DNA of 64,000 nt from Candidatus Anderseniibacteriota bacterium (GCA_016197005.1 JACPWO010000001.1:87266-151265); one strand, 5' to 3'. Counted from the stretch's first letter, positions 9,365 to 64,000 are shown. Notes: generated by a model from the sequence alone, not told the origin. Numbers and translations: made by a program.

Positions 9365-10434
9365 CATTTGGATTTTTCGAAAACCCAGAACAAATAATAA
9401 GCGTGGCACGGGTGCTCGGCACCGGGGCTATTAACTTTTTGGCGGCATTTGCCCTCATGCCCCTCGTGATAAAGCTACTTAACTCCTGGCGGTTCGCAAA
9501 AAACATTCGTAATGATGGCTTGACTCCAATTTACTCAAGTCTCCACTTAAAAAAGGCCGGCACACCGGTTGGGGGTGGTATCCTGGTCTGGGGAACCGTG
9601 GTGATACTGGCAATTCTATTTTGGATTCCAGCAGTTCTCTATCCTTCCAATCCTACGCTGACGTTGAATTTTCTAACTCGTCCCCAAACCCTACTCCCAA
9701 TAGGTGCACTGCTGGCCGCAGCATTAGTAGGTTTGGCCGACGACTATTTTAATGTTCGTGGCTACGGCCCGAAAGGTGGCGGACTACGTATGTGGCACCG
9801 CATTATTTTATATACCGTAGTAGCTGGTTTTGGTGCCTGGTGGTTTTTCTACAAACTTGAATGGAGCTTAATTCATGTCCCGGGAGTTGGAGACTTTGAA
9901 ATTGGCTGGTGGTATATCCCGCTATTCATTTTTGTTATTGTCTCAACTGCTTTTTCGGTGAATGAAGCAGACGGGCTGGATGGTCTAGCTGGTGGTATTC
10001 TCTTATTTTGCTACGGGGCATTTGCTGCGTATGCCTTCCATATTGGCAGGGTGGAGCTGGCAATGTTCTGTGCGGCCATTGTTGGATCGCTTTTAGCATT
10101 CTTATGGTTCAACGTCTATCCGGCTAAGTTTTTTATGGGAGATACGGGGGCGATGAGCCTTGGGACAACCCTGGGAGTTATGGCCATGCTTACGAATACC
10201 GCCTTAGTGTTACCAATTATTGCGTTTCCCTTAGTAGTTGAATCCTTATCCGTCATTATTCAACTTCTCTCCAAGAGGTTCTTAGGCAGAAAAATATTTC
10301 GCTCGACACCCCTTCATCATCATTTTGAGGCATTAGGTTGGCCAGAGACTCAAGTAACAATGCGATTCTGGATTGTGGCAGCAGTTTCGGCCGGACTTGG
10401 GCTAGTAATTGCTCTTCTTGGTAAAGGGGCATGA
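9361..10434 (+). CDS. mraY: phospho-N-acetylmuramoyl-pentapeptide transferase MraY
   Basis: NEADGLDGLAGG and the DD(Y)xN motifs. Proposed GTG start overlaps the dacA-like stop (GTGA). The start is uncertain, since the track ORF begins at 9328. Confidence 0.8.
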   Translation: MTFGFFENPEQIISVARVLGTGAINFLAAFALMPLVIKLLNSWRFAKNIRNDGLTPIYSSLHLKKAGTPVGGGILVWGTVVILAILFWIPAVLYPSNPTLTLNFLTRPQTLLPIGALLAAALVGLADDYFNVRGYGPKGGGLRMWHRIILYTVVAGFGAWWFFYKLEWSLIHVPGVGDFEIGWWYIPLFIFVIVSTAFSVNEADGLDGLAGGILLFCYGAFAAYAFHIGRVELAMFCAAIVGSLLAFLWFNVYPAKFFMGDTGAMSLGTTLGVMAMLTNTALVLPIIAFPLVVESLSVIIQLLSKRFLGRKIFRSTPLHHHFEALGWPETQVTMRFWIVAAVSAGLGLVIALLGKGA

Positions 10435-11798
10435 CAAATTCTCTTAAAAATAAGCGCGTGACCGTGATGGGTCTCGGCCTTCATGGCGGAGCGTTGGGAA
10501 CTATTTCATGGCTGGTGAAGCAAGGAGCAAAAGTGACCGTGACGGATATGAAAAGTGAAGAACAACTTGCCTCATCGCTAAAACAACTTGGAAAACTTAA
10601 GAATATAAATTTTGTTTTAGGTCAGCACCGCACCGAGAATTTCACCAATACGGATTTAGTTATTCGCAATCCTGCGGTACCAAAAAATTCTCCCCACCTG
10701 CAAGCTGCTCGGAAAGCTGGCGTGGCAATCGAAATGGATAGCAGTTTATTTTTCTTATATTCACCAACGACAGATATTATTGGTGTTACTGGTTCCAAAG
10801 GTAAAACTACTGCTTCGCATGCCATCGCTCATATATTAGGAGCAACAAGGGTGGGGACGGATGGTGTATCTCCGCTCGGTGAGGTAGCAAAACTAAAGGA
10901 AAACTCAACGGTGGTATTCGAACTTTCTAGCTGGCGCCTGGAAGCACTTACGTCGCACAAGATAAGTCCGCCAGTAGCGGTGGTGACATCAATATATCGT
11001 GAACATTTAAATACGTATACGGATTTACCAGAGTACATTGCGGCCAAAAAGGGAATTATTCGTTACCAGAAAGCGGAGGATACCGCCATCCTTAACTATG
11101 ATGATGCAGAACTGCGAACATGGGAGTCAGAAGTACAAGGAACATTGTATTGGTTTTCCCTCAAGGAATTGCCGTCAGGAAAAGAGGGGATCTACCGGCA
11201 AGATGGACAAGCAGTTGTGCGGATAAAAGATAAAGAAATTTCTATTCCCTTACATACGCTCGCACTGCAGGCTGATCACGAGCAACGGAATGTTTTGCCA
11301 GCTATTTTAATTGCGTGCCAGCGAGGAGTAAGTTCAGAAAAAATTACGGCAGCCCTTACTAGCCTTCCACGACTTTCTCATCGCCTGGAAATAATTCGAG
11401 AACTTAACGGTGTTACCTATATCAATGACTCGGCTTCAACCATGCCTGATGCAACCATTGCGGCTCTCCAGAGTCTTGCCGGAAAATCACTCGTCCTCAT
11501 TCTCGGTGGTAGTGACAAGAAACTGGAATTCAAAGAATTAGGAACAGCGGTGGATGCAGCCGATGTTCGCGCTATTGTTTGGTTGCCTGGCTCCGCAACT
11601 GCTCGTATGAAAAGTGAGACACAAAAGGAAGTACCACAAACTGGAGCTGAAACTATGACTGAGGCGGTTACACAAGCAGCGACAATAGCACAAAGCGGTG
11701 ACACCGTTCTTTTGTCTCCGGGTGCAACAAGCTTTGGCCTCTTTAAGCACGAATTTGATCGCGGCGATCAATTTCGGCAAACCGTTAGCACTCTCTAA
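10431..11798 (+). CDS. murD: UDP-N-acetylmuramoylalanine--D-glutamate ligase MurD
   Basis: MurD N-terminal Rossmann (VMGLGLHGG) and Mur ligase P-loop GVTGSKGKTT. ATGA overlap with mraY. Confidence 0.85.
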   Translation: MTNSLKNKRVTVMGLGLHGGALGTISWLVKQGAKVTVTDMKSEEQLASSLKQLGKLKNINFVLGQHRTENFTNTDLVIRNPAVPKNSPHLQAARKAGVAIEMDSSLFFLYSPTTDIIGVTGSKGKTTASHAIAHILGATRVGTDGVSPLGEVAKLKENSTVVFELSSWRLEALTSHKISPPVAVVTSIYREHLNTYTDLPEYIAAKKGIIRYQKAEDTAILNYDDAELRTWESEVQGTLYWFSLKELPSGKEGIYRQDGQAVVRIKDKEISIPLHTLALQADHEQRNVLPAILIACQRGVSSEKITAALTSLPRLSHRLEIIRELNGVTYINDSASTMPDATIAALQSLAGKSLVLILGGSDKKLEFKELGTAVDAADVRAIVWLPGSATARMKSETQKEVPQTGAETMTEAVTQAATIAQSGDTVLLSPGATSFGLFKHEFDRGDQFRQTVSTL

Positions 11799-11842
11799 CG
11801 GAGTTGGCGGAAAGATGAGGCCAATACGGTATACTGCGTAGC

Positions 11843-12949
11843 ATGTCCAGAACGCCAGATCTTATCCTTCTTTTTAGTATTTTAGGTCTCACCATTTTTG
11901 GCATGGTGATGGTGGGAAGTGCGTCGACCGTTCAGGCCGAGCAACTAACTGGGGACCCGTTCTTTTTCTTAAAACATCAGCTTCTGTACGGTGGAACCGT
12001 TGGCTTCGCTCTCTTTGTAACGGCCTTCATTGTGCCATATCGTTTCTGGCAAAAGTTGGCGCTGCCAGCCTTAGTCGGTGCTCTCATCTTACTTGCTCTG
12101 GTGTTTATTCCTGGACTTCAAGTGGAGTCCGGCGGCGCAGCGCGTTGGATTGGATTTGGTCCGGTCACTATCCAACCGAGCGAAATAGCGAAATTGGCTT
12201 TTATTTTATACTTAGCAGCTCTGCTTGAGCGAAAAGGGGAAGATATACGGGATTTTAGAAAAAGCGTGATGCCGTTTCTCATGATCACGGCTGCTATTTC
12301 TTTTTTGATTATTCTGCAACCAGATATAGGAACTTTGTTTGCTATTACTGCCATCGCGGCGGCTATGGTATTCGCAGCTGGGTTTCGCCTACGCCATCTT
12401 GCCCTCATTGGTGGTCTGGGGGTAGCAGCTTTTGCATTACTCGTAAGCACCGCAAGTTACCGTTTATCTCGTATCTTCGTCTATTTGCATCCTGAGCTTG
12501 ATCCACAGGGTATTGGCTACCAAATTAATCAAGCTCTCTTGGCAGTAGGTAGTGGTGGAGTATTCGGACTTGGATTTGGACGCAGCCGCCAAAAATATTT
12601 ATTTCTACCGGAACCGGCTAGCGATAGTATTTTTGCAGTCGCAGCAGAAGAGCTGGGATTGGTTCGGACAATTGGCATTCTCATTGTTTTTGCAGTGATT
12701 GGTATTCGTGGCTATCGTATCGCCGCCTTAGCTCCAGATATGTTTGGTCGTCTCTTAGCGGTCGGAATTACCTCATGGATTGTGATGCAAGCATTTGTAA
12801 ACATAGGAGCAATTCTGGCGATTATTCCACTTACTGGTATTCCACTGCCGTTTATTAGTTACGGCGGATCCGCTCTCGCAACACTATTATTTGCATCGGG
12901 CATTCTTCTTAATATCTCAAAACACACCCAACCGCTCACGAGTCGATAG
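11843..12949 (+). CDS. ftsW: SEDS-family peptidoglycan glycosyltransferase FtsW
   Basis: 10-TM FtsW/RodA family. Its position between murD and murG in the dcw cluster points to FtsW. Confidence 0.8.
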   Translation: MSRTPDLILLFSILGLTIFGMVMVGSASTVQAEQLTGDPFFFLKHQLLYGGTVGFALFVTAFIVPYRFWQKLALPALVGALILLALVFIPGLQVESGGAARWIGFGPVTIQPSEIAKLAFILYLAALLERKGEDIRDFRKSVMPFLMITAAISFLIILQPDIGTLFAITAIAAAMVFAAGFRLRHLALIGGLGVAAFALLVSTASYRLSRIFVYLHPELDPQGIGYQINQALLAVGSGGVFGLGFGRSRQKYLFLPEPASDSIFAVAAEELGLVRTIGILIVFAVIGIRGYRIAALAPDMFGRLLAVGITSWIVMQAFVNIGAILAIIPLTGIPLPFISYGGSALATLLFASGILLNISKHTQPLTSR

Positions 12950-56643: not shown

Positions 56644-56694
56644 AAAATGAGACAGTCTGAGACACTATAAAAAGAGCCGTCTCGTGTCTCATTT
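56644..56694. terminator. bidirectional terminator-like inverted repeat
   Basis: AAAATGAGACA...TGTCTCATTTT perfect 11-nt arms with an inner GAGAC/GTCTC extension. Overlaps the stop of the minus-strand small gene. Confidence 0.5.
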
Positions 56695-57018
56695 TCCTGA
56701 GTTCTGTTGCTGGTATTCCAGAACCTTCTCGGCTGGTGACATTCCGCCTAATAATCTATGTGGAAAGTAGTTCCAGGCATCGTTGATGACTTCTATGATA
56801 TTCTGCAGCTCCACTGCTCCCTGGCCGGTATCAAACATGGCAATAATATCTGTCATAGCGTCCGTACCATCCTCGTTAAAGATGACCTCCTTGATATGAT
56901 CCAGGCTGAAATCACTGCCGGTTTGCTCAAGCATTACAGTTAGCTCCTGCTCAGTTTCAGCTCGCTTATCGGTAATTTGTTGCTGGTTCAAAATTTCCAT
57001 ATCCACATAGTGGCGCAT
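56689..57018 (-). CDS. small acidic protein, paralog A (109 aa), C-terminal W-x3-P-x3-LGG-x-SP motif
   Basis: About 70% identical to the ORF at 61541-61864. Confidence 0.5.
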   Translation of the reverse strand: MRHYVDMEILNQQQITDKRAETEQELTVMLEQTGSDFSLDHIKEVIFNEDGTDAMTDIIAMFDTGQGAVELQNIIEVINDAWNYFPHRLLGGMSPAEKVLEYQQQNSGK

Positions 57019-57111: not shown

Positions 57112-57184
57112 TGGAGGATAGCGGATTCGAACCGCTGACCTTCCGCACGCCAGGCGGACGCTCTCCCAACTGAGCTAATCCCCC
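57112..57184 (-). tRNA. tRNA-Ala (anticodon GGC)
   Basis: Manually folded cloverleaf: acceptor GGGGGAT/ATCCTCC with G3:U70, D-arm GCTC-AGTTGGGA-GAGC, anticodon stem TCCGC/GCGGA with loop CTGGCGT, T-arm AGCGG-TTCGAAT-CCGCT. CCA is not encoded. Confidence 0.85.
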
Positions 57185-57188
57185 GAAG

Positions 57189-57259
57189 TGGACCGCCGGA
57201 GAATTGAACTCCGATCTCCTGATTGCAAGTCAGGTGTCTTCCCATTAGACCAGCAGCCC
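57189..57259 (-). tRNA. tRNA-Ala (anticodon UGC)
   Basis: Acceptor GGGCTGC/GCGGTCC with G3:U70, D-arm GTCT-AATGGGA-AGAC, anticodon stem CCTGA/TCAGG with loop CTTGCAA, T-arm CGGAG-TTCAATT-CTCCG. Lies 4 nt from the first tRNA. Confidence 0.8.
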
Positions 57260-57404: not shown

Positions 57405-58100
57405 TCATGGGTGCCAGTTCCAAACGGCTTCCGCGCCGCTCATTTCTGGCAGGTACTTTCCGTCCTTCTTGTCAGGACGGACGTACTTTGCTAGAAATTC
57501 GACTTGGCCTCGCCGCTCACAGCGGTAGACCACACCCTCAATCTCATCGCACGGCCACTTATGCCGGGAATGAATTTCGAGGGCTTTCTCAACACCAATA
57601 GCATCTCCAACGTGGAGAAGACTTGGTGTCGAAAAGTGTCCATCGATGCGCTCGTGAAGCGCATCGTACGAAATTCGCCGGTCTCCGATCATCAGGTCAA
57701 AGACCGCGAACGGCTCACGGCCATTCAGATCGTAGACCGTCCCATGGGCTTGGGCGAGCCATTCGCCGCATAATCGTTCACCATTCTTGAGGATCACCCG
57801 AAAGCGATCTTCATTTTGGCGAACCCACTGAGCGAACAAATGATGTTGCTCATAGGGTGAACTATCTGCGGGCCAGCCAGCGCGGATCAGTGGATGTATT
57901 GCGTCGTCGATTAACGCGACGGCGACGCAGGATCCATCCAGTTTTTCCTGCACGACGATCACGTCATGCGAATCTCGCACCTTCTCGGTGCAGATTCTTT
58001 GCTGGCCTTCGGGGATTGACCAATCCCCCGGACCCATGCGACTGCATGGTAAATGTGGGATCGAGCCGTAGGCCCGACGTCCCAGAGGTTTCTTGGACAT
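57405..58100 (-). CDS. ATP-dependent ligase-family nucleotidyltransferase (RNA-ligase-like minimal NTase, 231 aa)
   Basis: Covalent nucleotidyltransferase motif I EKLDGS, motif III-like FAVFDL, motif IV EGVVYR and motif V LAKYVR in the canonical order. Visibly GC-richer than the flanking DNA. Confidence 0.55.
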   Translation of the reverse strand: MSKKPLGRRAYGSIPHLPCSRMGPGDWSIPEGQQRICTEKVRDSHDVIVVQEKLDGSCVAVALIDDAIHPLIRAGWPADSSPYEQHHLFAQWVRQNEDRFRVILKNGERLCGEWLAQAHGTVYDLNGREPFAVFDLMIGDRRISYDALHERIDGHFSTPSLLHVGDAIGVEKALEIHSRHKWPCDEIEGVVYRCERRGQVEFLAKYVRPDKKDGKYLPEMSGAEAVWNWHP

Positions 58101-58308: not shown

Positions 58309-59598
58309 GTGGCTGACATTACCTACTGCCTTTACGCAAGAAAAAGCACGGAAAGTGACGAACTCCAAGCCCTTTCCATTGATTCGCAAATCAAAGAGAT
58401 GTTAGATCAGACAAAGCGAGATGGAATTACTGTCGCGGAAATCAGGCGGGAAAGTCACTCCGCCAAGGAGTCGTTTACCAGACCAGTATTCCGGCAACTT
58501 ATTGAAGATATTCGCAGCTCAAAATTCAGCGGCATTCTAACTTGGGCTCCAGACCGTTTAAGTAGAAACGCCGGTGACCTCGGGGCACTAGTTGACCTCA
58601 TGGATCAAGGCAAGCTAGCGGAAATCAGAACGCATGGGCAGATATTCCGTAACTCACCAAATGAGAAATTTCTACTGATGATTCTGTGTAGCCAAGCCAA
58701 GCTGGAAAATGATAACCGGAGCGTCAATGTGAAGCGTGGTCTTCGAGCCAAGTGTGAGATGGGCTATCGTCCCGGCATGACCCCGCTCGGCTACGTAAAT
58801 CTCAAGTACGAGAAGAAAGGCGACAAGAAGATAGTCCTTGATCCCAAACGGGCGCCCATCATTCGCGAGATGTTCGAGCGGGTAGACGCAGGCGCCAGTG
58901 GCCGAGATGTTCTGCGCTGGATTAACAACGAGGCAGGATTCACTACGCGTACGGGCAAGAAAGTCGTTCTATCGGCGATATACGTCATGCTGCGCAATCC
59001 CTACTACTGCGGGAAGTATGAATTCCCGAAAGGCGGCGGTACTTGGTACAAAGTCGCCCACAAATCTATCGTGCCGGTACGTCTTTGGAAAAATGTGCAA
59101 GAAAAACTCACCGGTGCGCCCAAAGCTAGGCCAGGCAGCAAGACGTTCGACTTTACCGGCATGCTCACGTGCGGAGCCTGCTTGTCGGGAGTAACGGCTG
59201 AAGATCGGTTTAAGGATATTATTGACGGCACCAAAAGACGCTACGTCTACTACCACTGCACCAGAGCTCGTGACCTGGCGTGTCCGGAGCCGTACATTCG
59301 CGAGGAAGCCTTACTCGATCAGCTGCTAGATATCATCGATACGGTGGATTTGAACGTACTGGAAGTGCAGGAAAAACTGGCAGATGACCTAAAACGATAT
59401 CAAAGATTCGCTATGAAGGTACTACAGCGTGAGGATACGCAAATAATGCCGGACTCCGACATCCGCAGCTACGCCAAACACATGCTGTTAGAAGGAAATC
59501 GGGATGAGCGCCGGGAGATCATCGCCAGCATCACAACTAAACTGTATTTACAAAACAAGCGGATCAGTATTAAAACACCGAAAATACTTCACGCCTAG
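58309..59598 (+). CDS. large serine recombinase (resolvase-domain integrase with recombinase domain and zinc ribbon)
   Basis: N-terminal catalytic YARKST(E)SD...SIDSQ serine motif, a recombinase domain, and a Cys cluster CGAC...HCTRARDLAC. Confidence 0.8.
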   Translation: MADITYCLYARKSTESDELQALSIDSQIKEMLDQTKRDGITVAEIRRESHSAKESFTRPVFRQLIEDIRSSKFSGILTWAPDRLSRNAGDLGALVDLMDQGKLAEIRTHGQIFRNSPNEKFLLMILCSQAKLENDNRSVNVKRGLRAKCEMGYRPGMTPLGYVNLKYEKKGDKKIVLDPKRAPIIREMFERVDAGASGRDVLRWINNEAGFTTRTGKKVVLSAIYVMLRNPYYCGKYEFPKGGGTWYKVAHKSIVPVRLWKNVQEKLTGAPKARPGSKTFDFTGMLTCGACLSGVTAEDRFKDIIDGTKRRYVYYHCTRARDLACPEPYIREEALLDQLLDIIDTVDLNVLEVQEKLADDLKRYQRFAMKVLQREDTQIMPDSDIRSYAKHMLLEGNRDERREIIASITTKLYLQNKRISIKTPKILHA

Positions 59599-59882
59599 CC
59601 GGTTCGAATCCTGATACAGGGCTGAATCGGACAACTTATTATCTTTTGACTTTCCGCCAACGTGACGCAGTAACGGACTATGGTCGCATTTAAAACGAGA
59701 AATAAGTGTTCACTTGGCGGGACGCGTTTAGAACCTTTAACTGGTCTAAGGCTATACCTTATCCTGCTGTGGAGCTAGGGCAGATTAGGCACTTGTTAGC
59801 GTTGGTGTAGCCCCTAGCCCCCTTAGCGTTCGTCTAATGCCAAATGAGCGACCCCCCACCCCAAAAAACACCACCCCTAGAA

Positions 59883-59980
59883 GGTGGTCATAGGAAACAA
59901 AAAGAAACTTCCTAATTGGTAGCGCGGACACCCCCTACTCAAAGAATCGGGACTCCTATCAACTTAAGGGGTGGTCATAG
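59883..59980. repeat. direct repeat GGTGGTCATAG x2 plus C-rich tracts in the recombinase-proximal intergenic region
   Basis: GGTGGTCATAG at 59883-59893 and 59970-59980. TAGCCCC mini-repeats and a CCCCCCACCCCAAAAAACACCACCCC tract at 59810-59880. Confidence 0.4.
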
Positions 59981-61519
59981 CCCCGCAATATCTTCTCTGA
60001 TTTTTTTGGGAAAGATAGTTCGATAGTCATCTGGAAATAAGTGAATAGTCTTATTGAGGTCATCTTGAAAGCTGTTTCTAAGGTAAGGATCAAAACACCA
60101 CGAGGATTTTTCTGGATCAAACACCTTACCCTGCATTACAGTCTTGACCCCCCTGCTTTGTATAATCTGTGCGCCGTGCTCAAACTCCTGAACTGACATT
60201 ACGGTAAATGGTTTTTCTGTAAGCCACTCGACAGGTAGCTGTGCAGCCTTCATTTTTTCTTCAACCTTTTTCTGTACTTTGCGGAGAGGATCGCCCATTA
60301 AGAACCAATCCTCCAAGATTACAACAATGGGAAAGATTGCCTTCGAGCCATTATATTTATATTTTGGACTTTTATATTTACCTGCCTGATAATATTGGAT
60401 CGTCTTATATATCTGCAAAGCAGCGTCCGCAATAATATCAAGTTGTTTTTCGAGTTCAGAAGAATCAAATAGCTCGACTTTGGCCGGCATTGTGAGTCGT
60501 TTAGTTTTACACTCAATAAATAATGCCGCATCGTCCTGATCTGCTATCCAATCTATTTTAGGGGCATTGAAGCTTTGAGTTTGCTCCTGTGGGTAAATGA
60601 CGAATTTGTTGTCTTTGTTGGCCTTTTCCAGAACCTCACCAATATAATACTCGAACGATTCTCCAAAAACAGTATCGAATCCGCTTTGACGACAAAGTTC
60701 ATAATATATTCCATTTGTAACGCGCCAAAATAGAAGTGCCGGCATTGGGCAAATTAGACTATCCTGACCACTAATATTAATTCTGATCAAAGGATAGATT
60801 TTGAATGAGTCGTGATAGTAGAAAAATTTCTCATCGATACTTCTTTCTGTGGGCGATTGCAATTTTACTTTAAGGCTTTCGTAGTCTGTAGAAAAAAGTT
60901 TTAGAAATAAATCTAGCTTTGATACATCTAGGTCGTCTTGGCCTAGGTTAATTTCGGGTGGATAAAATAAGGAGAATTTAGTTACATATACGCCTAGAGT
61001 AGCTATGCCCAGCAGATAAATCTCTTGCGTTGTGAGCCCAGTAGTTTCTTTGACGATTTTATCTAGGGCAGGATAACTAAAAATTTTAAAATAACGGGTG
61101 AGATAAATCTTATTGAAACCGTGTATTTGCCAAGGAAACTGACGATGAGCCATCCGATGTATCTCAACCAAAACATTTATCTTGCCGCGATATATCTTCG
61201 TAAGGTCATTTTCAAAATCCTTAACCTTATTGATCGCGTTGGCAAGATGATTCTGTTTTCGTAGATCGTATCTGGCCTGTGTAAATTGAGGGGAGTTGAT
61301 AATAATTTCCCTTGCGAGGGTTTCTAGTTCCCAATTGTTAATTACTCGCGGGCTTTGCCTTAAAGCATCCCAGTGAACATCAACGTCTATTGGGAAAGGC
61401 TTTTGAAGCCAGAGATATTGAGAATATGATCGTATGGTTGCAAGAGCATCGATTAGATTGAGTTGTCTTAAATAGTTTCTAAGCGGTTTATATGCTGCAA
61501 ATATTTCATCATTAGGCAT
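59975..61519 (-). CDS. hypothetical 514-aa protein with C-terminal PD-(D/E)xK-like nuclease motif
   Basis: IDWIADQDDAALFIECKTK (D...ExK) in the C-terminal third. The N-terminal ~300 aa shows no recognisable motifs. Confidence 0.45.
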   Translation of the reverse strand: MPNDEIFAAYKPLRNYLRQLNLIDALATIRSYSQYLWLQKPFPIDVDVHWDALRQSPRVINNWELETLAREIIINSPQFTQARYDLRKQNHLANAINKVKDFENDLTKIYRGKINVLVEIHRMAHRQFPWQIHGFNKIYLTRYFKIFSYPALDKIVKETTGLTTQEIYLLGIATLGVYVTKFSLFYPPEINLGQDDLDVSKLDLFLKLFSTDYESLKVKLQSPTERSIDEKFFYYHDSFKIYPLIRINISGQDSLICPMPALLFWRVTNGIYYELCRQSGFDTVFGESFEYYIGEVLEKANKDNKFVIYPQEQTQSFNAPKIDWIADQDDAALFIECKTKRLTMPAKVELFDSSELEKQLDIIADAALQIYKTIQYYQAGKYKSPKYKYNGSKAIFPIVVILEDWFLMGDPLRKVQKKVEEKMKAAQLPVEWLTEKPFTVMSVQEFEHGAQIIQSRGVKTVMQGKVFDPEKSSWCFDPYLRNSFQDDLNKTIHLFPDDYRTIFPKKIREDIAGL

Positions 61520-61540
61520 AAGACACTCATCACACGGCTA

Positions 61541-61864
61541 TTAAAGGTTCCCCTCTTGCTTTTGCTGGTATTTCAACACTTTTTCCGCCGGAGAGAGGCC
61601 GCCCAAAGTTTTATGCGGAAAGTAATTCCAAGCGTCATTAACAGTTTCGATGATATTTTCCAGCTCGGCTGCCCCTTGGCCTGTATCAAACATAACGATG
61701 ATGTCAGTTAAGTCGTCCGTGCCTTCTTCGTTGTAGATAATTTCTTTTATGTCATCCAAGCCAAAGTCGCTCTTAGTTTCTTTAAGAAAAGCTAGAAGCT
61801 CCTGCTCGATCTCGTTGCGACGATCAATGGCCTGCTGCTGGTTAAGAATCTCCATAGCATTCAT
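61541..61864 (-). CDS. small acidic protein, paralog B (107 aa)
   Basis: About 70% identical to paralog A. Start codon overlaps the stop of the upstream nuclease gene (ATGA). Confidence 0.5.
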   Translation of the reverse strand: MNAMEILNQQQAIDRRNEIEQELLAFLKETKSDFGLDDIKEIIYNEEGTDDLTDIIVMFDTGQGAAELENIIETVNDAWNYFPHKTLGGLSPAEKVLKYQQKQEGNL

Positions 61865-62616
61865 TCGTTATGCCTTCCTATGGCTTCGATATAGCTGCAA
61901 TAGTCGCAGCCAGAATTATTGGATGGGATTGTATTTTGATTCAAACACGCGTGGATTTCTGAAATAGTATCTTCGATCCAAGAGTCATCACCTTTATACG
62001 GGATCAGAGTAATTTCAAATTCAAGCTTACCGTCGAATGCCCTTCGATCAGTCTGGCCATTGCAATAAACAAAGTAGCCGGTATCAGAAACGGTATAGCC
62101 ATTCTGTCGTAGTAACCATTGATACACCTCCATCTGTCGCTTATAGCCATCGTGCCATTCCTTGTTCAGTTCAGTGATCTCCTCGTTTTTAGACGTGGCC
62201 TTATAATCAACAACAATGTATTCGCCTTTGGAGTTCTGCCAAAGGTCATCAATCGCGCCAAAGATTAATAAATTCGTCGCCTTGTGCAGGTGTTGGATAC
62301 CCGTAAAGTTGTGCCGCCACTTGTCTAAATCTTCGTGCGGAACAGGTTGAGCATCGACACCATACTTTTCAATAAGAGGGTGCTTAGTGCCATTGGCTCG
62401 ATGAATATCAAACTCTTGCTTTAGGAGATGATCGACGGCCGAATTTAACGCAAAGGGAAAGCCTGGCGGTCGGCCAACGCCCAGCTTGCGGTCGTGGTAG
62501 AAACAGCGAGGGCAGTCTAAAAATAAATCAATTTTGGAACGGGAAAGCTTAAACGGCTCAATAGCAGCAGGATCATACAAGCCTTTTGTTCGTTGGGAAT
62601 TATAGTATTCAGACAT
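61861..62616 (-). CDS. RecB/Cas4-like PD-(D/E)xK nuclease with four Cys (CxxC...CxxC)
   Basis: Motifs in order: CPRC, GAIDD, IVVDYK, QMEVYQWLL (QxxxY), CDYC. Confidence 0.6.
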   Translation of the reverse strand: MSEYYNSQRTKGLYDPAAIEPFKLSRSKIDLFLDCPRCFYHDRKLGVGRPPGFPFALNSAVDHLLKQEFDIHRANGTKHPLIEKYGVDAQPVPHEDLDKWRHNFTGIQHLHKATNLLIFGAIDDLWQNSKGEYIVVDYKATSKNEEITELNKEWHDGYKRQMEVYQWLLRQNGYTVSDTGYFVYCNGQTDRRAFDGKLEFEITLIPYKGDDSWIEDTISEIHACLNQNTIPSNNSGCDYCSYIEAIGRHNE

Positions 62617-62618
62617 TG

Positions 62619-63554
62619 CTATGAAGGTAAGCTTTTAATGTAGGGTCTTAATGCCTTTTCAAGTCGCACCATTGCATCAATAACCTTAATCTGTGCCTGC
62701 TCCCACGTTGCCTTATCTTTTAATCCATACTCCTTAAACCTAAAGCTAATTCGACAAGCCCTACGATGTTCTAGGCGTTCCCACGTGAGGTTGCCGCCGA
62801 ATGTATTCTCGATTACGTCCTTATGTTTGTACAAGGCATCAAAACGTTCCTTGTTGAGCGTTGGATACTCCTTGCCTCTGTCGAGATACAACTCTGCGCC
62901 GACAAAGCCGGTGGTGATTACATAATTAAAACTTAGACCGCTTTTGCCAGCCCCCGTTCCAATCCAGCTATAAATCGTGGGGGAGGTGTTTGAATGTAAT
63001 TTTGTTCTTTCTTTCGCCTTTTCCAACAACTGCTGCCAGAACTCCTTTCGCAGATGATGACGCTCCGCGTATTCTTTCTTTTCTAAACCGACCTCTTTAG
63101 CAATTTCGGTGGGCTGCACGATCACAGTGAAAAGAGGCGCGGGATCAGAACCGCCTATTTTCACTGCCTCCACTTGCACTAAATAAAATGCAATGTCGGC
63201 TGGTGTATGCTCGTTAAGCCAATGCACGGCTTTCTCGTGCTCTTCTCGTGGGCTACTGGTGATCCATATGGCCGCCTTAGCATCAAGATTGGTCATATAT
63301 GTGAGCACTTTACCTAAGTGGTCGTGGTCAGTTTTTTCCAACTGATTTTCAACAATGGCCAAATGACCGTCGCTATCTTCAAGCATAATGTCTAAGTAAA
63401 AGCTGCCGACTGATTTTTCTTTTTCGACAATTGAAAATGATGTTTCTAACGCCTCATTAAGAGCATCAATATTTTCAGCAAGCCACGACGTAAAATCTTT
63501 GGCTTCATTTTTCCAGATTTCTCGAAGCGGAACTCGTTGTAGCTTTCCAATCAT
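62619..63554 (-). CDS. NucS/DUF91-like PD-(D/E)xK nuclease domain fused to a C-terminal domain of unknown function (DUF4268-like)
   Basis: FYLDIMLEDSDGHLAIVENQLEKTDHDHLGKVLTY matches the D-x(n)-E-x-K/Q core of NucS-type nucleases. Confidence 0.5.
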   Translation of the reverse strand: MIGKLQRVPLREIWKNEAKDFTSWLAENIDALNEALETSFSIVEKEKSVGSFYLDIMLEDSDGHLAIVENQLEKTDHDHLGKVLTYMTNLDAKAAIWITSSPREEHEKAVHWLNEHTPADIAFYLVQVEAVKIGGSDPAPLFTVIVQPTEIAKEVGLEKKEYAERHHLRKEFWQQLLEKAKERTKLHSNTSPTIYSWIGTGAGKSGLSFNYVITTGFVGAELYLDRGKEYPTLNKERFDALYKHKDVIENTFGGNLTWERLEHRRACRISFRFKEYGLKDKATWEQAQIKVIDAMVRLEKALRPYIKSLPS

Positions 63555-64000
63555 ATTGTTGATCCAAAACTACGGATTATTCTTTTTTCTTCATCGCTAA
63601 TTTTATAAAGATTCATAACCAATTCATCAATTTCCTTGTTCAGTTTTTGAATCGTTTGAAGTAGTGTCAACAACTCTTGCTTAGTTGTTGTAAAGAAGTC
63701 CATCAATTCTGATTTTTTCTGGATAGAAACTGATACTTTAATAGTTCTTAAAAAATCTTCGAATTCCTGCTTATAAAAACTTTTGGCCTTTTTGGGGATT
63801 GAGGGCAGCGAGAATTCGTGAGCAAATAACTTCTGTGCCTTTTCAAGCTTTTGGTTAAAATCCCCACTCATCGAAAGCAATTGACGAACTTTTTCTACAA
63901 TCTCACCCTGCGCACCCTCTGATGCTTTATATATAGGGAATTGTGCTAATTCATTGACTTTAAATTGAGGAAAAATCTTTCGCTGAAATTTGTTAAATGT
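63551..64000 (-). CDS. 3' end of a larger gene continuing beyond the window, whose C-terminus resembles type IIG RM / PglX-like N6-adenine methyltransferase tails (partial)
   Basis: The reading frame is open to the window edge with no stop in 40 codons upstream of the track's TTG. The C-terminal EIDELVMNLYKISDEEKRII matches the hydrophobic-LY-x-[LI]-[ST]-x-EE-x-x-I tail of such MTases. Confidence 0.4.
   Translation of the reverse strand, partial: TFNKFQRKIFPQFKVNELAQFPIYKASEGAQGEIVEKVRQLLSMSGDFNQKLEKAQKLFAHEFSLPSIPKKAKSFYKQEFEDFLRTIKVSVSIQKKSELMDFFTTTKQELLTLLQTIQKLNKEIDELVMNLYKISDEEKRIIRSFGSTI

Follow-up and report, generated by a model that had tools for sequence, protein, structure and literature searches.

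Gene content of the array

We analysed a 64-kb stretch of DNA (hereafter the window) from Candidatus Andersenbacteria, a tiny groundwater bacterium that belongs to the Candidate Phyla Radiation (CPR), and focused on an array of five genes that occupies its minus strand from position 59975 to the window end. CPR bacteria mostly lack CRISPR and are not culturable alone, and their phage resistance is inferred from loci of this kind. In the direction of transcription, the array consists of the 3' end of a predicted type IIG restriction-modification (RM) gene (63551-64000; the last 149 codons, with the frame open up to the window end), a putative PDC-S11 nuclease gene (62619-63554; 311 aa), a Cas4-like gene (61861-62616; 251 aa), a gene for a small acidic protein (61541-61864; 107 aa, or 104 aa with a Met4 start at 61855) and a GAPS1-like gene (59975-61519; 514 aa). 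An initial annotation had interpreted the five genes as one uncharacterised defence module. Reading of the open reading frames (ORFs) and junctions bore out the five ORFs, their coordinates, four junctions and motifs as it had described them, and its domain calls held up: a tail of type IIG, a nuclease resembling NucS that has an additional domain, a Cas4/RecB-like nuclease and a D...ExK motif at the C-terminus. Its picture of a mobile island of defence flavour, with a serine recombinase and tRNAs, was upheld.

Two of the junctions are 4-nt ATGA overlaps (63551-63554 and 61861-61864, read from the junction sequences), and the other two are gaps of 2 nt (62617-62618) and 21 nt (61520-61540). 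The median gap between co-directional genes in the window is 9 nt, 63% of such pairs are separated by ≤25 nt, and a run of four junctions this tight is expected ~16% of the time in this genome. Because close gaps are the norm for this genome, the packing of the array is not above chance. The practical lesson is cautionary: overlapping reading frames do not, in genomes as compact as these, identify a functional module, and what looks like a new five-gene system breaks up into known single-gene units on comparison with relatives. A terminator-like hairpin with a T-run (59870-59888, minus strand; 8-bp stem, GTTTTTTGGG tail) lies ~85 nt past the 514-aa gene and likely marks the end of the transcription unit. 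The count of terminator-like sites in the region was not above the shuffled expectation. A promoter scan, uninformative for CPR, also returned a count equal to the shuffled expectation.

The ORF at 63551-63880 is a mere tail of a larger gene. The complete upstream gene and the far flank were read on contig JACOTL010000006.1 (GCA_016178385.1; locus label L001), where the whole gene spans L001:6933-10004 and encodes 1023 aa. Pfam identified Eco57I (2.4e-43), N6_Mtase (8.7e-19) and TaqI_C (2.4e-19) in this protein and a sub-threshold match to MmeI_N (22 versus the Pfam value of 27 bits). The best PADLOC match was REase_MTase_IIG (2.3e-114, residues 37-688), and the N-terminal nuclease motif, PD88...E106-x-K108, is intact. 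On these matches we assign the gene, now completed from adjacent sequence, to a type IIG RM enzyme with predicted nuclease, methyltransferase and specificity domains in one polypeptide. Counting its N-terminal motif, the PD-(D/E)xK nucleases of the array number four; the nucleases named initially all stand, and their count of three does not. BREX and DISARM were rejected as assignments: for the 1023-aa protein, the scores of the PglX and DrmMI models fall far short of those of the IIG models, and PADLOC detected no BREX or DISARM component (such as PglZ, BrxC or BrxL, or DrmA, DrmB or DrmC) among the other scanned locus proteins.

The 311-aa protein matched the PADLOC profile PDC-S11 (PDLC04914; E = 3.4e-126), with residues 2-309 aligned to profile positions 5-311 of 314. 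It also matched DUF4268 in its C-terminal part (1.5e-31) and, more weakly, NucS_C in Pfam and NucS (1e-4). From these matches it is assigned an N-terminal NucS-like PD-(D/E)xK domain and a C-terminal DUF4268, as a PADLOC single-gene candidate. Searching solved structures by sequence returned no significant relative. Homologs of PDC-S11 were found on 360 plasmids, from bacteria and archaea, and in four annotated plasmid regions the neighbours of PDC-S11 differ and lie ~60-600 nt from it. A scan of viral contigs found two distant loci only, and no neighbours were shared across the four plasmid contexts and two viral contigs.

The 251-aa protein matched PDDEXK_1 (PF12705; 1.4e-14) and, at threshold, Cas_Cas4. 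Its motifs comprise an N-terminal CxxC (C35, C38), DDLW, VDYK, Q..Y and a C-terminal CxxC (C237, C240); the four cysteines, D123/D124, D137-x-K139 and Q151...Y155 are invariant or nearly so over 77 homologs. We classify the protein, from these matches and motifs, as a putative solo Cas4-family (PDDEXK_1) nuclease. A CRISPR-associated Cas4 was rejected (TIGR00372, 32.8 bits versus a cut-off of 65). No Cas1 or Cas2 family occurred among 112 upstream neighbour proteins of Cas4-like homologs, and neither the Pfam hits of L001 nor the scans run with PADLOC and Pfam on the array proteins and the majority of called neighbours revealed another Cas family. No significant relative was found for the 251-aa protein when solved structures were searched by sequence. 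In one homolog (P0105; 323 aa, 80% identical) there is also a winged-helix DNA-binding domain of the FtsK-gamma type (PF09397).

Cas4-like homologs number thousands. Across many CPR lineages, the 120 top clusters show 77-85% identity, and homologs also occur in Nitrospirota and Elusimicrobiota bins; a pattern search of 185,579 species representatives, which sees close relatives only, gave 231 matches. Substitution at synonymous sites has reached saturation (pS ~0.85, against pN of 0.10-0.22), which rules out recent horizontal transfer as the source of the conservation. We read the clade, on these substitution patterns, as anciently diverged and under very strong constraint. Compared over a common set of locus pairs, identity is 75-81% for the Cas4-like protein, versus medians of 49% for TspO, 50% for the PIF1 helicase, 31% for HsdR and 30% for the serine recombinase.

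The small protein has a pI of 4.2 and a predicted five-helix bundle, and Pfam, PADLOC, profile and solved-structure searches yielded no family and no sequence or fold relatives of known function. It had been described as a 107-aa acidic protein; the acidity is confirmed, and the length is 104 aa according to its homologs and the NCBI annotation, which use the Met4 start, although a GGAAGG located 8 nt upstream favours the longer form. With the Met4 start, a 5-nt gap would replace the 4-nt overlap. The protein is 68-83% identical across CPR. A paralog (109 aa, 56689-57018, minus strand; 69% identical, probable Met7 start) lies apart from the array, immediately past the two tRNA-Ala genes and in convergent orientation to dnaX, giving the genome two copies.

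The 514-aa protein had a single family match, NCBIfam GapS1 (NF047931; E = 8.7e-23), over model positions 60-429 of 455, and GapS1 was the only family matched by 26 of 30 members of its own family (best E = 2.3e-30). D323, E336 and K338 are invariant over 30 homologs. A confident AF2 model (pLDDT 88.7) matched PD-(D/E)xK nuclease folds and winged-helix domains, and neither structure nor sequence searches found a close solved relative. The protein consists of an N-terminal helical/winged-helix region and a C-terminal PD-(D/E)xK nuclease. Its family, which is mainly from CPR, is unannotated and has no Pfam domain, and we place it, from its profile matches, as a distant sister family of GAPS1 and not as a curated member.

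Distribution of the five genes among relatives

Two sets of loci were searched for the other window proteins: 80 genome loci with Cas4-like homologs of 68-83% identity, covering ±10 kb, and 80 metagenome loci with a homolog of the 514-aa protein. The 80 Cas4-like loci contained the 514-aa gene in no case, PDC-S11 once (35% identity, 10 kb away), the small gene four times and a close IIG homolog once. In the 514-aa set, a Cas4-like gene occurred once and a clear type IIG-like gene twice, the small gene and PDC-S11 were both absent, and three further loci gave weaker methyltransferase matches. Neighbour clustering found no family in >13 of the 80 Cas4-like loci or in >6 of the 80 514-aa loci. 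The gaps flanking the 514-aa homologs were mostly >50 nt. The closest Cas4-like homolog (85% identical) follows a type I RM system and the closest 514-aa homolog (51%) an AbiEii pair, and at both sites the other window genes are absent. The type I RM operon preceding the former contains a RelA/SpoT-domain protein between hsdM and hsdR (L191:1950-3011). These results contradict the proposal of one uncharacterised five-gene module, since the genes are scattered and non-syntenic in relatives.

The exact array was found on six contigs only, all of which encode an identical 311-aa protein. The best match was the source genome, the five remaining contigs come from one series of sequencing runs, and all six probably represent one population.

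The gene upstream of the Cas4-like gene was co-directional in 60 of 71 loci, with a gap of ≤50 nt in 44 and of 1-15 nt in 33. Among the three genes upstream (112 proteins), we found ResIII (16), HsdR (7-8), AAA_21 (6), HerA (5), reverse transcriptase (RT; 5) and Eco57I (3); the families enriched before the Cas4-like gene thus include type I and type III RM, HerA, AAA_21, RTs and IIG enzymes. Many Cas4-like loci show no recognisable upstream defence gene. In approximately eight loci the Cas4-like gene is situated between variable cargo and a constant regulatory/recombinase module, and in most loci both flanks are variable.

A family of elements resembling integrative and conjugative elements (ICE-like) was observed in CPR (L011, L012, L013, L020, L022, L027 and L045; ~20 kb each). 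Its constant parts, not all visible in each locus, include RT-Fic-RadC at one end; at the opposite end they include regulators (HTH_36, Cro-like and LexA-like), a serine recombinase and a TraG/VirB4-like ATPase. The swap site between them is occupied by an RM system of type I or type III, by an AAA_13 protein or by a dcm methylase, and its usual last gene is Cas4-like, with no intact Cas4-like ORF called in L020.

The small gene occurs at the tail of arrays with IIG/ISP enzymes, HsdS, SIR2-like, DUF3800 or NUDIX genes. In six independent small-protein contexts the other window genes were absent, including the Cas4-like gene in all six, save for distant type IIG/ISP enzymes in two. Counting the window, the small and Cas4-like genes co-occur in 5 of 81 Cas4-like loci. 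A toxin-antitoxin pair of the two was rejected, as the small gene was near the Cas4-like gene in only four of the 80 loci, with a TIR gene between them in three. The small gene is immediately followed by TspO in two contexts; TspO is also one to three genes past the Cas4-like gene in seven loci, in one of them directly after it.

One string of genes recurred at L009:22-5310, L014:5766-12367 and L017:1525-8800, consisting of a ResIII helicase with a TnsA-like nuclease (~910 aa), an RT (~500 aa), the Cas4-like protein, a TIR-domain protein (~430 aa) and the small acidic protein. In L017 the RT was not confirmed, and a 699-aa protein of a different cluster stands at that position. One possibility is that the two tail genes here enclose a retron- or DRT-like system.

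Mobile-element setting

Convergent with the array is a gene for a large serine recombinase of 429 aa (58309-59598, plus strand; Pfam Resolvase, Recombinase and Zn_ribbon_recom), likely the integrase of the element that carries the array. The same flank contains an RNA ligase and two tRNA-Ala genes. Beyond the type IIG gene, L001 encodes a PrimPol/AAA_25 primase-helicase, an HTH_17 excisionase-like gene, DUF5659 and a second serine recombinase. Because a primase-helicase, an excisionase-like gene and two serine recombinases flank it, the array is cargo of an integrated element. Over the 21-kb source locus, a search for attachment-site repeats gave a single 19-nt imperfect direct repeat and no repeats that bracket the element.

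The RNA ligase (231 aa, 57405-58100, minus strand) matched Pfam RNA_ligase (4e-18) and PHROG 38169 (1e-54). Directly downstream of it are the two tRNA-Ala genes, in tandem (57112-57259, minus strand; GGC and TGC anticodons), and Rfam identified nothing beyond them. The ligase and tRNAs could provide a tRNA-repair/counter-defence function of the element, or the site could merely be that of integration.

Recombinases 50-61% identical to that of the window were found within ~1 kb of 514-aa homologs, and convergent with them, in two loci. In one (L189:7001-10888) the GAPS1-like/recombinase pair stands beside a terminase large subunit and a ParB-methylase; in the other (L134) the pair is at 10001-12809. 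This suggests a prophage-like element family that carries a GAPS1-like gene beside its integrase, and as the pairing with a recombinase recurs in both loci, the GAPS1-like gene has the look of integrase-proximal cargo. The element genes of the window, PrimPol among them, were not common to the other Cas4-like or GAPS1-like loci; since this backbone is not shared, the Cas4-like and GAPS1-like genes ride several types of element.

At another locus (L160:6795-11512, by tblastn), a GAPS1-like homolog occurs with a 46%-identical IIG enzyme, and the table-11 ORFs are badly fragmented. The fragmentation points to recoding of a stop codon, which some CPR lineages show, or else to a poor-quality assembly.

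Interpretation and comparison with known systems

We consider it rather likely that the array brings together anti-phage genes that act each on its own, stacked probably on one transcript and carried as cargo by an integrated serine-recombinase element, and is not one multi-component system. Judging from its domains and motif, the type IIG enzyme would form a first layer by methylating self DNA and cutting unmodified foreign DNA. DUF4268 is borne by the modification-dependent nucleases MdgA and MdgB (PMC12366544) and is fused to GmrSD enzymes of type IV (PMC4619093); by analogy, PDC-S11 probably cuts modified phage DNA and would catch phages that escape the first layer. GAPS1 is a single-protein PD-(D/E)xK defence that is triggered by the T7 capsid protein and results in dormancy (bioRxiv 10.1101/2023.03.28.534373). 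On this model the GAPS1-like protein may sense a phage component through its N-terminal region and halt the cell with its PD-(D/E)xK domain. The Cas4-like and small acidic genes would constitute a fourth layer of separate tail genes, each of which recurs alone at the 3' end of many unrelated defence operons; our preferred guess for the Cas4-like protein is that it processes the ends of, or degrades, DNA that an upstream nuclease has cut.

Several observations weigh against independent action. The five genes are co-directional and overlap or are ≤21 nt apart, and the sole extragenic terminator-like site, also the clearest, is 3' of the last gene, with two weak ones inside the 311-aa and 251-aa genes. 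Because of this orientation, spacing and terminator placement the genes are probably co-expressed, which leaves functional cross-talk possible, and synteny statistics cannot exclude cross-talk. Partial groupings also occur: a IIG gene is directly followed by a Cas4-like gene in L079, IIG, Cas4-like and GAPS1-like genes lie within 10 kb in L127, and a IIG gene precedes the GAPS1-like gene in L160. The GapS1 score of the 514-aa protein (80.9 bits) is well under the curated cut-off of 320, and any equivalence of the 311-aa protein and MdgA is tentative. The packing, together with products that are all nuclease- or DNA-related and an identical array on six contigs, would fit a single undescribed defence system of mutually dependent parts. 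However, the spacing is the genome norm, the six contigs share an identical 311-aa protein and probably come from the same population, the partners are absent or scattered over 160 relatives' loci, and three of the genes are of kinds known or predicted to act singly. We therefore regard a single integrated system as highly improbable.

The role of the two tail genes is weighed separately from that of the other three. The Cas4-like nuclease, with or without the small protein, might be partially coupled to its neighbours as a generic accessory that boosts the upstream defence nuclease by resecting or degrading DNA ends, much as RecBCD acts on DNA ends after restriction in E. coli. The frequent co-directional upstream gene (60 of 71 loci, 44 with gaps ≤50 nt), the richness of the three upstream genes in defence families and the ICE-like family, in which type I, type III and other cargo is swapped directly before a constant Cas4-like gene, all argue for such a role, and the extreme purifying selection fits an enzymatic role independent of partner. 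Precedents are ACE1, an Argonaute-associated Cas4-family enzyme that assists another defence nuclease (PMC12094033), and solo-Cas4, noted earlier in CPR genomes and, next to RM systems, in DPANN archaea, with no function assigned (PMC5704561). Nevertheless, in the absence of a conserved single partner the cooperation would have to be non-specific, many loci have no recognisable upstream defence gene, and the small and Cas4-like genes are seldom together (5/81 and 0/6), so we hold the accessory role to be possible and no better than tentative. The two genes could instead be non-defence backbone or housekeeping genes (e.g., for recombination, repair or element maintenance) that border a hotspot of defence cargo. 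Their hyperconservation (75-81%, against 49% for TspO and 31% for HsdR) is unlike that of fast-evolving defence genes, and the approximately eight loci with a constant module, the recurrence of TspO downstream of the small gene (two contexts) and the Cas4-like gene (seven loci), and the small-gene paralog by tRNA-Ala and dnaX outside the array (56689-57018) point in the same direction. A backbone gene would not be expected to show so patchy-looking a distribution (231/185,579, close relatives only visible), flanks that both vary in most loci, or upstream gaps of 1-15 nt in 33 of 71 loci, which are tighter than a simple insertion boundary. We find this explanation rather unlikely and rate it similarly to that of a generic helper.

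A bolder proposal, which we offer as a doubtful one, is that the Cas4-like nuclease serves CPR defence operons as a universal tail factor, as does the small protein in its own right, and that both act independently of partner to finish DNA cleavage or regulate its consequences, perhaps in place of a missing RecBCD/AddAB activity. If true, this would explain why genes that are among the slowest-evolving are found in the fastest-changing loci, and tail genes that serve as generic restriction helpers would represent a new principle of immunity economy in minimal genomes.

Under the favoured interpretation as a stack of independent genes, the locus is, for all its density, a defence island of the ordinary sort, built from known kinds and two hyperconserved tail genes. 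The initial annotation had matched the array to no nameable system. Three of the five genes do fall into described kinds (type IIG RM, PDC-S11 and GAPS1-like). The predicted IIG enzyme resembles the MmeI/Eco57I type in being one polypeptide with an N-terminal PD...ExK motif, Eco57I/N6_Mtase and TaqI_C domains, and it fits the class range of ~900-1200 aa with a gamma-class N6-adenine methyltransferase; unlike the MmeI type, its MmeI_N match is under threshold. The 311-aa protein agrees with PDC-S11 in its full-length profile match, its NucS-like and DUF4268 domains and the single-gene behaviour of its relatives, and differs in that the window copy translationally overlaps a type IIG gene.

The Cas4-like protein shares with the solo-Cas4/MGE-Cas4 PDDEXK_1 group (Hudaiberdiev et al. 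2017) and with ACE1 a Cas4-type core, a cysteine cluster and QxxxY, and, like them, it is frequent in CPR genomes, does not belong to CRISPR loci and adjoins RM and other defence genes. Its clade has a 2+2 cysteine pattern (CxxC...CxxC) and not 1+3, evolves much more slowly than the 'genomic median' reported for solo-Cas4, and has no fixed partner, whereas ACE1 pairs with Argonaute. The 514-aa protein differs from GAPS1, which comes from the GMT island of Vibrio and E. coli, in its score of 81 bits versus the cut-off of 320, its mainly CPR family and its lack of a Pfam domain. Like GAPS1, however, it comes as a single protein in the size range of ~450-510 aa and carries its PD-(D/E)xK domain, with an invariant D...ExK, at the C-terminus; its homologs appear to stand alone and ride mobile elements, and its C-terminal motif matches the active site that GAPS1 needs for defence (D313 and K328). 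As a distant GAPS1 sister, this CPR family of ~500-aa proteins would extend GAPS1 defence to a new superphylum.

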